50,590 nt of DNA from positions 1 to 50,590 of the forward strand of contig MGKI01000012.1 of assembly GCA_001795615.1 (NCBI GenBank), given 5' to 3'. The stretch is from Candidatus Yanofskybacteria bacterium RIFCSPLOWO2_01_FULL_42_49 (lineage in GTDB: Bacteria; Patescibacteriota; Minisyncoccia; 2-02-FULL-40-12; GWA2-44-9). Below, in pieces: positions 47,519 to 49,824 of the stretch. The position numbers were made by a program, and so were the translations under genes. The notes under the pieces are model-generated. The model searched no databases. It saw nothing but the letters and a program-made list of their open reading frames with translations, and was not told where the DNA came from. The first letter of the stretch is position 1. Each line of letters begins with the position of its first letter.

Positions 47519-49153
47519 TTATGTATTATAATATGATAAGAACAAATAATTGCGGGTATAGTACAGTGGTAGTACGACTCCCTTCCAAGGAGTAGACACG
47601 AGTTCGAATCTCGTTACCCGCTCCAGTATGAAACGTTCGGGAAATTGACCGACCTGATTGTGGGCGACGCCAAGCGTCGCCCATTGATTCGGTGAGGTAA
47701 TCTCTGAATCGCTCGGCCCGATGAATCGGGCCTCGCGGTTGGCCAAGATGAGGTTCGACCCAAAGATTCCTTTGGCGATAACCTTTTTATCAAAAAGGTT
47801 ATCGCCTCTTGCGATTTTATCTACATTTAGAGCCTCATTTATCCATTTTCTCATCGGTTCTACCCAAGAGAATTGCTTTTGTTCAAGGGTGAGTATTTTT
47901 TCTTCTATGGTCTTTTTTTCTGACATTAGTTTGGCCTTCTTTTCAAGGTAGGATTCTCTATCAACATCCTGGTCTAAATAACTATCCAAGAGTCTTTGGA
48001 GCTTGGCCTTGATATCGGATATTTGATCTTTGGATTCTTGAACAAAAGCCAATGACGAGCTTTTGGTGTCCTGTTCTTCCGAACTAATCTTGTTTAATAA
48101 ATAATCAGCCCATTCTTTTTTCAAAGAAAATTTTTGAAGGAGATTTGATATTTGTCTATCCAAAACCTCTTGTCTTACATTGGGTTCATTGCACTTTATT
48201 GTCTTTGATTTTTTGGAGCAGTGATAATATGTGTAGTAATGGATATTTCCATTCTTTTGTTTCTTTATCTTGTATTCTCCGGTTATCATCATCCCGCAAT
48301 TACAAAACAATAATCCGCAATATGGTTGGGGGTTATTTCCATTTACATCTTTGTCTTTTTTCTGCGGCCTTCCTCTGCTATGCAATATTTCTCTCACTCT
48401 ATCAAAAATTTTCTTTGAGATTATGGGCCGATGTTTTCCCTCGTAAATTTCTCCGGCATATTTAAAGTGTCCGTAATAAAAAGGATTTGAGAGGATAAAT
48501 GAGGCCTTTGATATGTGGATTCTCTTTCCGGTTTTGGAGATTATGCCGTGATCTTGGAGATAGTTGGATATATCTTCTAATCTGGAATTTCCTTGAGCAT
48601 AAATATCAAATATTTCTTTAACTATTTTGCCTTTCTTTTTATCAACGATTATTGTTTTATTTCTTGAGTCGTTTATATATCCAAGAGGAGTACGTGAGGG
48701 ATATTCTCCCCTTCTTACTTTTTGTCTTAATCCTCGCTTGGTATTTTCGGAAAGAGAATCCACATAATATTTAGATTGGCCAAAAGCAATATTCAGCATG
48801 AACTTGCCTTGAGGTGTGGATTCAAACCAGAATTGCGGAAATTTAAGGGCAAGTATTTTGTTACAATCTAAAAAATATATTATTTTACCGCCATCTATGG
48901 AATTACGAGCCAACCTGTCGGGATGCCAAGCGATAATTCCGTTGGCTTCGCCATTTTCTATTCTATCGAGCATGGAATTAAAAAGTGGTCTTCCTGGAAT
49001 CTTTGCCGATTGCTTTTCAATAAGAACATCGACGATTTCGAGATTTTCTCGCTTGGCAAATTCCCGCAATTCTGTAATTTGAGCTTCGATAGATAGAACT
49101 TGCTTGTCTTCGACGTCTGTTGATTTTCTGGCATAGAGAAAATATTTGTTCAT
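47519..49153 (-). CDS. Large serine recombinase/integrase; last 33 aa read antisense through tRNA-Gly
   Basis: YARKS catalytic motif, SAK..GRP.F, WHPDRLARN, PLGY, ILSNPFYYG, Zn-ribbon (C.C..M, YYHC), coiled coil. Confidence 0.93.
   Translation of the reverse strand: MNKYFLYARKSTDVEDKQVLSIEAQITELREFAKRENLEIVDVLIEKQSAKIPGRPLFNSMLDRIENGEANGIIAWHPDRLARNSIDGGKIIYFLDCNKILALKFPQFWFESTPQGKFMLNIAFGQSKYYVDSLSENTKRGLRQKVRRGEYPSRTPLGYINDSRNKTIIVDKKKGKIVKEIFDIYAQGNSRLEDISNYLQDHGIISKTGKRIHISKASFILSNPFYYGHFKYAGEIYEGKHRPIISKKIFDRVREILHSRGRPQKKDKDVNGNNPQPYCGLLFCNCGMMITGEYKIKKQKNGNIHYYTYYHCSKKSKTIKCNEPNVRQEVLDRQISNLLQKFSLKKEWADYLLNKISSEEQDTKSSSLAFVQESKDQISDIKAKLQRLLDSYLDQDVDRESYLEKKAKLMSEKKTIEEKILTLEQKQFSWVEPMRKWINEALNVDKIARGDNLFDKKVIAKGIFGSNLILANREARFIGPSDSEITSPNQWATLGVAHNQVGQFPERFILERVTRFELVSTPWKGVVLPLYYTRNYLFLSYYNT
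47552..47625 (+). tRNA. tRNA-Gly(TCC) with encoded CCA
   Basis: GCGGGTA/TACCCGC acceptor, ACTCC-CTTCCAA-GGAGT anticodon arm, ACGAG-TTCGAAT-CTCGT T arm, TCCA end. Confidence 0.96.
47621..47758 (+). repeat. 138-bp inverted repeat, left arm (tRNA 3' end CTCCA + recombinase 3' region)
   Basis: Reverse complement matches 49469-49606 with 3 mismatches. Confidence 0.95.
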
Positions 49154-49186
49154 AGTGATTAATTATATCAAAATAACTTTTTGCAA

Positions 49187-49229
49187 CACACCAAAAAGCT
49201 CTGGCAGAAAGCCAAAGCTTTTTGGTGTG
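49187..49229 (-). terminator. Hairpin/terminator downstream of the tRNA-like RNA
   Basis: cacaccaaaaagct...agctttttggtgtg 14-bp arms. Confidence 0.6.
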
Positions 49230-49299
49230 GACCCGGCGGGACTTGCACCCGCTTATCCGAGTGGTAACAACGGAATGTTACTATATACGTCACGGGCCC
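49228..49299 (-). ncRNA. tRNA-like RNA (non-canonical cloverleaf; G3-U70; nominal anticodon TAC)
   Basis: - strand GGGCCCG...GCGGG-TGCAAGT-CCCGC-CGGGTCC-A; D and anticodon stems carry mismatches; own promoter. Confidence 0.7.
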
Positions 49300-49314
49300 G
49301 GATCCACGGGAGTA

Positions 49315-49343
49315 ATTTTAGTATAGAAAAAGCCCTCTTTCAA
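49315..49343 (-). promoter_or_regulatory. sigma70 promoter for the tRNA-like RNA
   Basis: TTGAAA-17 bp-TAAAAT on the - strand. Confidence 0.65.
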
Positions 49344-49400
49344 GGGCCATTTCTATACCACTCGGGTTTGTCCGTGATGCTACGCAACATACCGTTGTTA
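49327..49400 (-). ncRNA. Candidate ~70-nt small RNA complementary to the tRNA-like RNA
   Basis: Between the promoter at 49406-49435 and terminator gccct-tgaaag-agggc-ttttt; three blocks complementary to 49257-49295. Confidence 0.55.
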
Positions 49401-49405
49401 TTAAC

Positions 49406-49435
49406 AGTATAGCATGGCCGATATCCACATGTCAA
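49406..49435 (-). promoter_or_regulatory. sigma70 promoter with extended -10
   Basis: TTGACA-18 bp-TATACT, with TG at the extended -10 position, - strand. Confidence 0.7.
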
Positions 49436-49468
49436 ATTTTCTAAAAATCTCTAAAATCGCAAGAGATT

Positions 49469-49606
49469 TCGAACCTCATCTTGGCCAACTGCGAGGCACG
49501 ATTCATCGAGCCGAGCGATTCAGAGATTACCTCACCGAATCAATGGGCGACGCTTGGCGTCGCCCACAATCAGGTCGGTCAATTTCCCGAACGTTTCATA
49601 CTGGAG
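49469..49606 (-). repeat. 138-bp inverted repeat, right arm, followed by an alternative in-frame recombinase tail (49607-49651)
   Basis: + strand reads SNLILANCEARFIEPSDSEITSPNQWATLGVAHNQVGQFPERFILE-GLYEQIRTHFIKNL*. Confidence 0.93.
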
Positions 49607-49824
49607 GGATTATACGAACAGATTAGAACTCATTTTATCAAAAATCTCTGACCAAAGGAAGCCGCCTTTTTTATACTCGCTTGGGCGGCTCTCATTTCAG
49701 ATTTCGCTTTTTGGATTTGTGTATCAGATTTGGTAAAATAATAATAAAGTTTGAGAGGATTTTTTCGTGGACGGCAAATGGACTTTAGAACCAAAAACAA
49801 GTAAAACTAAGAAAAATATAAGGG

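Follow-up and report, generated by a model that had tools for sequence, protein, structure and literature searches.

Why should an integrase gene lodged against a tRNA gene be accompanied by a second, inverted copy of its own attachment site just upstream? The question is raised by a locus near the end of contig MGKI01000012.1 of Candidatus Yanofskybacteria bacterium RIFCSPLOWO2_01_FULL_42_49 (assembly GCA_001795615.1). The window analysed here, 50,590 nt, is the whole of this contig (C12) of a genome of 807 kb in 14 contigs. The locus holds a gene for a large serine recombinase (LSR) that reads into tRNA-Gly(TCC) from the opposite strand, the leader of that gene and an inverted repeat whose arms enclose the leader and most of the gene (Table 1). 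An earlier interpretation made without database searches (the sequence-only reading) took it for a self-inverting cassette, in which recombination between the arms toggles the recombinase between two C-terminal forms. We lean towards reading it as the end of an integrative island whose attachment site (attP) lies inside the integrase open reading frame (ORF), so that the native tail would be lost on integration, and in which recombination between the arms would restore a 525-aa form.

The inverted attachment site

The two arms, detected by an inverted-repeat search, are 138 nt long, 98% complementary and 1710 nt apart, and with an E-value of 4e-65 in a self-BLAST search the repeat is far beyond chance. 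They differ at three positions (49490, 49498 and 49509), located 97-116 nt from the core, which correspond to an arginine-to-cysteine, a silent and a glycine-to-glutamate change. The last five nucleotides of tRNA-Gly, CTCCA (47621-47625), are common to the tRNA and the first arm, and beyond them integrase residues 512-544 are the translated antisense of the tRNA. The factual statements of the sequence-only reading all hold. Translation of 49442-49651 on the forward strand likewise agrees with its claim that the second copy stays open in the recombinase frame: it runs through SNLILANCEARFIEPSDSEITSPNQWATLGVAHNQVGQFPERFILEGLYEQIRTHFIKNL to a stop at 49649-49651, ending in GLYEQIRTHFIKNL. The geometry is thus as proposed there, with a 544-aa form as assembled, a predicted flipped form of 511 + 14 = 525 aa and an intact tRNA-Gly in both. 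A 331-nt contig (49301-49631) from a sequencing run of another study runs from the leader through the inverted arm into arm a without differences, which speaks against a misassembly of the second arm.

Comparison of the junctions clarifies what this second arm is. Arm b and tRNA-Gly form an attL-type junction, acccgCTCCAgtatg. The short arm a that follows the inverted copy of arm b has an inverted twin on another contig of the same genome (C8:530-587; 58 of 58 positions identical by BLAST), where it is followed by CTCTAAAC and a hairpin and forms with the chromosomal flank an attR-type junction, aatccCTCTAaacaa. The internal sequence catacTGGAGggatt, finally, is the reverse complement of aatccCTCCAgtatg, a complete attP that runs from arm b through the core to arm a, here inverted. 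Compared over 47616-47630, 49597-49611 and C8:578-597, the three junctions share only CTC, and the crossover is therefore placed inside CTC; such restricted identity fits the expectation for a serine integrase with a 2-bp crossover. The comparison takes attR from a different contig, C8, and no attB was recovered from an empty site of this species. It supports the proposal that the second arm is an intact attP-like copy, unexpected as a product of ordinary integration that would leave attL and attR.

The enzyme itself is assigned to the LSRs by its domains and its relatives in the PDB. Pfam identifies PF00239 (Resolvase, E 7e-22, residues 5-150), PF07508 (Recombinase, E 5e-15) and PF13408 (Zn_ribbon_recom, E 6.6e-7); R9 and S11 are invariant across 79 aligned homologues, as in resolvase domains with a nucleophilic serine; and the homologue P0190 retrieves SPbeta YokA and the A118 integrase at E ~1e-10. 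An AlphaFold2 (AF2) model of P0190, with a mean predicted local distance difference test score (pLDDT) of 74, places long helices at residues 343-390 and 396-446 after the ribbon strands. A serine invertase of the Hin/Gin/Cin type was considered and rejected on the length of 544 aa, the integrase-type C-terminal domains, the 138-nt arms and the unlike sites (attL and attP).

Table 1. Features of the integrase locus (window positions unless a contig is named) and related elements of the same genome
Feature	Position	Strand	Basis and remarks
LSR gene	47519-49153	-	ORF, 544 aa as assembled
tRNA-Gly(TCC)	47552-47625	+	ARAGORN; Rfam tRNA, 74.8 bits; integration target, B-type half of attL
Arm b (copy B)	47621-47758	-	integrase codons 466-511; ends at core
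Segment S between arms, invertible by arm-arm recombination	47759-49468	.	geometry; integrase codons 1-465 and leader
Leader ('RNA module')	49154-49468	-	promoter/terminator scan, ARAGORN, homology
Inverted copy of arm b (B')	49469-49606	+	reads in integrase sense
Internal inverted attP core region, catacTGGAGggatt	49597-49611	+	junction comparison
Arm a	49607-49664	+	14 native-tail codons, GLYEQIRTHFIKNL (49607-49648), stop 49649-49651, 13 nt more
Start of cargo segment X	49665-50590	.	includes the gccgcc/ggcggc pair (49661-49689)
Further LSR elements or fragments, genome G000	C1:27437-30031; C5:7479-10539; C9:20650-24738; C9:16750-17892; C3:8-895; C4:45154-45605		

Conservation of the layout

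Two sets of loci were compared for the layout: 80 genome-contig loci of homologues (53-68% identity) and 80 metagenome loci fetched with another family member. The same layout is present in 127 of the 160 loci, with the same inner boundary (the arms start at SNL). A repeat links the integrase 3' end to an upstream site in 63 of the 80 genome loci, another 11 having less than 450 bp of upstream sequence and 6 having no repeat, three of which come from contigs that end at the 3' end of the gene; the corresponding figures for the metagenome loci are 64 with a repeat, 12 not judgeable and 4 without. In 129 of the 160 loci a convergent tRNA gene, of 16 isotypes in all, abuts the 3' end of the integrase gene. 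Arm identity within a locus reaches 97% or more in 45 of 63 genome and 47 of 64 metagenome cases, and the integrases differ by 32-47%; the mismatches that do occur between arms (206, in 49 loci) rise with distance from the core, at 24, 38, 37, 52 and 55 per successive fifth of the arm. Judged by these comparisons, the element belongs to a family of integrative islands widespread in the Candidate Phyla Radiation (CPR)/Patescibacteria. The sequence-only reading had named a search of CPR genomes for the same architecture as a check, and its result removes the refuting case of a decayed remnant whose architecture is conserved nowhere else.

At least five further LSR paralogue elements or fragments are found in this 0.8-Mb genome, several of them at contig ends. 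Those on C1, C5 and C9 possess both inverted arm pairs, one (B/B') around the integrase gene and the other (A/A') enclosing 0.9-2.3 kb of unrelated sequence; A shares 3-4 bp with B'. The C1 element adjoins tRNA-Gln, and its flanks are not conserved past the tRNA; no integrase was found at the tRNA-Gln site in the fetched stretches of G001, G002, G003 and G009, the four of five searched relatives that hold the flank. Between the C1 and C5 copies identity is 89% over 1.87 kb, against 97-98% in their b arms. In C5, 20-26-bp pieces of the integrase gene are repeated inverted beside the arms (7581-7603, 8786-8811 and 8813-8832, with partners inside the gene at 9174-9196, 10411-10436 and 9214-9233); the same pieces recur in C1 and C9 with 100% identity though the elements are ~77% alike, in an order not collinear with the gene.

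The probable native C-terminal tail

What the inverted attP would add to the integrase is a short tail. The motif x-L-Y-x-x-x-R-T-[YFH]-F-x-x-N-x-stop is encoded in 40 of 52 loci with ungapped repeats, the frame analyses omitting gapped repeats (11 of the 63 genome-set loci with a repeat). In 28 of 30 non-redundant loci the stop lies 12-14 codons after the leucine. The arginine is invariant in all 30 by way of five different codons (AGA 6, CGA 16, CGC 3, CGG 4, CGT 1), the leucine draws on both of its codon families (12 TTR, 11 CTN; six codons), and the information per codon position is 1.00, 1.25 and 0.71 bits, the third position being the least conserved. These patterns indicate that the arm-a tail (13-15 aa, LYxxxRT[YF]FxxN) is under coding selection, and conservation at the protein level makes it the probable native C-terminus of the integrase. 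The element thus has an integrase ORF that crosses the attP core into an arm with coding constraint.

A second constraint besides coding is likely to act on the same nucleotides. In the window, arm a (compared over 49607-49632) contains AGATTAGAACTCAT, which agrees with AGATTCGAACTCGT in the antisense of the tRNA-Gly T-arm (47595-47620) at 12 of 14 positions, and the T-arm-like stretch lies 4 nt farther from the core in the arm than in the tRNA. An offset of +4 is the mode among non-redundant loci (18 of 47); the best 14-nt windows hold 9.1 matches, barely higher than the 8.8 of shuffled sequences, and arms compared with the tRNAs of other loci also cluster at +3 to +7. In serine-integrase attP half-sites the zinc-ribbon motif lies ~5 bp farther out than in attB, which we take as a lead rather than a test. 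Dyad symmetry of attP is slight (0.33 at the best centre, against 0.25 expected).

Each b arm contains, in addition, a GC-rich palindrome, perfect over 9 bp and centred on 5 nt (47661-47683 and 49544-49566), within the codons for QWATLGVAH, and a similar one is present in the arm of locus L079. In the window it lies ~40 nt beyond the tRNA 3' end and might terminate transcription of the tRNA, the native terminator now being on C8.

Both joinings of the integrase gene

At E<=1e-30 the integrase family comprises at least 7944 proteins in a collection of 5.8 billion, candidates being capped at 8000. Among the best 120 full-length homologues, 13 end in the native tail (~522 aa), 81 in a tRNA-antisense-like sequence and 26 otherwise, and the native-tail proteins lie mostly on contigs of 1.8-4.6 kb. 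Together with the 40 of 52 testable loci, these 13 bear out the suggestion that homologous recombinases would end in an LY...RT.F..N tail. A profile of arm b plus tail, run against 1.84 billion representatives, matched 489 proteins at E<=0.001; the best 150 of them are 36-247 aa long, 124 end in the tail and 15 show homology to the integrase body upstream as well, so that truncated ORFs carry the two in cis. A search among longer proteins with the 68-aa peptide of arm b and tail returned 3 matches, none with an integrase body in cis.

The flipped layout, with a tRNA on the same strand followed by B', the leader and the integrase gene, is seen in 6 of the 160 loci (L054, L062, L079, L189, L194 and L200), so that both joinings are represented, in assemblies of different samples rather than in one population. 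Three further loci were not counted as flipped: L066, where the upstream tRNA is the tRNA-Ala of the leader, and the mixed cases L046 and L037. In L141 the integrase segment is flanked by two copies of arm b plus tail that are 94% alike; since the copies differ, a collapsed-repeat error is unlikely, and the arrangement suggests a form with two complete attP sites.

Other exceptional loci deserve mention in their own right. In L037 (5751-7578) both b arms, 89% alike, adjoin tRNAs, with tRNA-Val upstream and tRNA-Leu downstream; the arrangement suggests that the internal attP took part in recombination at another tRNA, a step that would have rearranged the chromosome. In L162 (1714-1962) and L186 (1748-2026) the integrase frame crosses a tRNA, or a fragment of one, in antisense and then enters a tail-like stretch (...NEARTFF...), suggesting remnants of tandem or nested elements at one tRNA; with tRNA sequence between arm b and the tail-like stretch, neither was counted as native. 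The metagenome contig L172 (1-5945) has a 1718-bp terminal inverted repeat, 99.9% identical, with the 5' part of the integrase gene at both ends, and probably arose when the assembler followed a palindromic path around a segment with inverted repeats at its ends.

A proposed larger island

We read the cassette of the window as the tRNA-proximal end of a larger, still small, cargo island, with the contig break falling inside the cargo. The order would be tRNA, arm b, integrase gene, leader, inverted b-core-a, cargo, arm a on C8 and chromosomal flank. The sequence-only reading missed that the cassette is one end of an island continued on C8, that a pair of a arms brackets the cargo and that the unflipped orientation dominates about 20 to 1. 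Of the 22 loci for which 1.5 kb or more of upstream sequence is available, 10 have variable cargo enclosed by an a/a' pair, and the segment between the a arms of homologous islands is 1-4 kb of unrelated cargo that includes a type IIG restriction-modification enzyme, a Dam-type methylase, a GNAT-domain protein, a glycosyltransferase, a permease and family-less proteins. No replication gene was found among the 10 proteins of the examined cargo, and no ORF is conserved across the 13 cargo segments compared. Searches of 2.9 million viral contigs yielded no relative and then three; a viral origin was accordingly set aside, the elements being small islands rather than recognised phages.

On the window side, the start of the cargo includes the gccgcc/ggcggc inverted pair (49661-49666 and 49684-49689), which the terminator scan did not call as a terminator, and an ORF at 49825-50589 (-) that encodes a bacterial Ig-like domain and runs off the contig end. 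At the presumed cargo end on C8 there is a (GA)n run of ~13 units (230-260). Over 49610-49829 the Logan contigs of all four runs reach a summed depth 50-100 times as high as in the adjacent bins, and at 49666-49742 they continue in many alternative ways; the high depth after the tail fits sequence common to many elements or organisms in the samples.

Proposed mechanism and alternatives

The account towards which we lean would run as follows. A free form carrying two inverted copies of attP integrates by attP x attB recombination at the 3' end of a tRNA gene. Because attP lies within the integrase ORF, integration through the integrase-proximal copy would replace the native tail with tRNA-antisense residues and generate the 544-aa form. 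RecA-type homologous recombination between the 138-nt arms could then invert the segment that holds the integrase gene and its leader, with its own promoter-like site, rejoining the gene to the native tail and stop, and leaving the att sites and the tRNA unchanged. The truncated orientation would be the common and presumably quiescent one, its stability being indicated by the ratio of 129 unflipped to 6 flipped loci, and the flipped orientation would be rare and presumably competent. That inversion of the arms serves as a switch is our inference, and that a re-armed element may leave or be lost is speculation. C-terminal determinants of directionality are described for phiC31 integrase (PMC2475636), which we regard as an analogy and not as evidence.

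Extended to the family, the same logic yields a bolder and rather doubtful scheme, an integration-coupled switch in which the tail swap disarms the enzyme and rare recombination with the inverted cassette of attP and gene 3' end re-arms it. The cassette would in addition act as a live second attP that captures other tRNA genes, as in L037, and rearranges chromosomes; mobility would be controlled without a recombination directionality factor (RDF), and the half-site that mimics the T-arm would allow retargeting to new tRNAs.

Several observations weigh against the island reading that we prefer. All flipped contigs end inside arm B, so that the tail is not seen there in cis, and the complete order tRNA-B'-int-B-tail occurs on one contig in none of the 160 loci. 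The excess of unflipped over flipped loci (129 against 6 of 160, or about 20 to 1) indicates that inversion is rare, counter-selected or absent, and the rarer joinings found by short-read assembly may come from a mistaken path through a repeat. For this population, Logan contigs over 47300-50590 break at the arms and give no orientation; the sole joint among them, from 48049 to 48117 (side 22), is weak, and no empty-site or circular junction was seen in the same contigs. The spare copy of the window carries the arginine-to-cysteine and glycine-to-glutamate changes, some loci have arms only 79-92% alike, so that homogenisation is not universal, and the AF2 model of P0190 does not place the tail (pLDDT below 50, all residues from 467 onward being below 51), showing no structural role for it. 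Conservation of the tail could also derive in part from its role as an att half-site.

Among the alternatives, the most substantial, which we consider possible if appreciably less probable, is that the two inverted attP copies serve the free form, chromosomal flipping being incidental or absent and the integrated copy simply keeping an unused site. The free form might integrate as a circle through either site, flip-flop in the manner of the 2-micron plasmid or pSM19035, or fold into a duplex attP as a single strand, as the CTX phage does. The two complete copies of arm b plus tail around the integrase segment of L141, the short contigs on which native-tail full-length proteins mostly lie, the two tRNA-adjoining arms of L037, as if its internal attP had captured a second tRNA site, and the strong orientation bias, which speaks against free flip-flop on the chromosome, all agree with such a role. 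Random use of two equal attP sites would, however, predict roughly equal orientations; the examined cargo holds no replication gene in its 10 proteins and no conserved ORF in 13 segments, and only three relatives emerged from the 2.9 million viral contigs. A check for a 2-micron-like replicon found the two copies in L141, and neither a circular junction nor a replication gene. A folded-hairpin attP would, moreover, lead a serine recombinase to cut and so to break the chromosome.

The remaining explanations fare worse. The sequence-only reading proposed that the integrase itself flips the cassette, and here its attP copy, tail and geometry stand while the catalyst is doubtful: self-inversion by site-specific recombination at the cores strikes us as improbable. 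The arms do have their terminal core and the b half-site in common, and the recombinase is encoded inside the segment, much as Hin lies inside its own invertible segment. The sites are nonetheless of attL and attP type, and exchange at the core alone would not keep more than 100 nt, let alone all 138, identical; the orientation bias also tells against it. Mismatches fewest near the core may be counted in its favour, yet their rise with distance from the core is among our reasons for preferring homologous recombination, together with the unlike partners and the extent of identity. Pairings beyond attP x attB and, with a directionality factor, attL x attR are reported not to recombine with serine integrases (PMC3783163). 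It is very unlikely that the inverted copy acts as RNA, pairing with the integrase 3' end or with tRNA read-through to regulate expression: the palindrome in each arm (and in L079) and the antisense reading of the integrase gene into the tRNA would suit such a role, but a strong promoter-like site between B' and the gene puts B' outside that mRNA, and neither the protein-level conservation of the tail nor the arm-a pair around cargo would be explained. Least credible of all is an artefact or debris, whether an inverted join made in error during assembly, a repeat that arose by chance or what is left of another integrase gene that has decayed. The cassette does lie 1 kb from a contig end and inverted-repeat artefacts do occur, as in L172; against this stand the E-value of the repeat, the three mismatches that tell the arms apart, the independent contig that bridges leader, B' and arm a, the recurrence of the layout with its SNL boundary and the absence of any integrase body beside the spare copy.

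Comparison with known systems

With the LSRs of phages and islands (Bxb1, phiC31, A118, SPbeta SprA/YokA) the system shares a three-domain protein with a coiled-coil insert, integration at a specific site, a very short common core and reconstructable attL and attR. It departs from them in that attP lies inside the integrase ORF, integration would swap the C-terminus and a second, inverted attP is kept, and in that the extreme 3' ends of many different tRNAs are targeted by elements of only ~2.6-6 kb, the smallest of which (C1) holds no recognisable directionality factor. Archaeal integrases of the SSV1 type also have the attachment site inside the integrase gene, which integration into a tRNA gene alters; there int contains attP and is split into two large parts, the enzymes are tyrosine recombinases encoded by archaeal viruses, and no spare inverted copy is present. 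The 2-micron plasmid with FLP and pSM19035 with its beta recombinase are small replicons in which two inverted repeats hold the recombinase sites, whereas the present elements are observed in the integrated state, yielded no replication functions and have no FLP-type enzyme.

Mycobacteriophage BPs has an attP inside an ORF whose C-terminus, and with it the properties of the protein, differs between the free and the integrated form, an analogy rather than evidence; there, in contrast, it is the repressor ORF that contains attP, integration is catalysed by a tyrosine recombinase and there is no inverted duplicate. The serine invertases behind inversion switches are small (~190 aa), with a C-terminal helix-turn-helix domain, 26-bp sites and an enhancer, whereas here the integrase has 525 or 544 aa, the arms are 100-150 nt and the switched gene is the recombinase itself. 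Tycheposons are a further point of comparison. Rewriting of the BPs repressor ORF by integration underlies the integration-dependent immunity described for this phage (PMC4557955), and the switches driven by Hin, Gin, Cin and PinQ (PMC12529663) resemble the mechanism proposed here in that a gene receives a different 3' end when a segment between inverted repeats is flipped. As small cargo islands that target tRNA genes in the streamlined genomes of Prochlorococcus, tycheposons are similar in kind (bioRxiv 10.1101/2020.12.28.424599); the start of their abstract does not mention the repeat layout.

No description of the repeat layout was found in the full-text literature, a search that did not cover supplements and subscription journals, and the main text of PMC12455944 on gene exchange in Patescibacteria, in the part available, contains no mention of integrase, recombinase or tRNA. 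A system that has attP in the integrase ORF and would shed a conserved tail when it integrates, that keeps an inverted attP inside and a further arm pair around the cargo, and that targets tRNA 3' ends thus appears undescribed, which is no proof of absence. The family is very large and lies beside tRNA genes in many CPR/Patescibacteria lineages. If true, the proposed mechanism would provide a natural case in which integration rewrites the C-terminus of the serine integrase itself, and a testable form of mobility control without a directionality factor. It could also explain the closeness of these integrase genes to the ends of CPR contigs, a distance of no more than a few hundred bases in most of the 160 loci. 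Small islands would bring restriction-modification and other cargo into streamlined genomes, and related integrases with different tRNA-end targets would be of interest to genome engineering.

The tRNA-Gly site and the leader

The target tRNA-Gly(TCC) ends in ...CTCCA also in the same-genus relatives G001 and G003, in which no integrase lies within 1.5 kb on either side of it; this absence, like that at the tRNA-Gln site of the C1 element, speaks for mobility. The chromosomal flank on C8, a gene without annotation, matches contig C9 of G003 at 2.2 kb from a tRNA-Gly(TCC) in opposite orientation, and attB can therefore not be rebuilt from this relative. Recombinase residues 510-537 are also matched by the antisense of tRNA-Gly(CCC) on contig C1.

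An Rfam scan of the paralogous loci returned tRNAs only, and one of the leader itself no family at E<=1 beyond weak, chance-level matches. The leader contains a promoter-like site at 49435-49406 (TTGACA, 18 nt, TATACT; 11 of 12 positions), a terminator-like hairpin at 49348-49331 and another hairpin at 49187-49229. It also holds a tRNA-like element of 73 nt at 49227-49299 (-), with a G3:U70 acceptor pair and the anticodon UAC, which ARAGORN calls at no threshold other than 90%. Homologous leaders are found in L066 (78%) and L036 (75%), with a tRNA-Ala(TGC) in the corresponding position.

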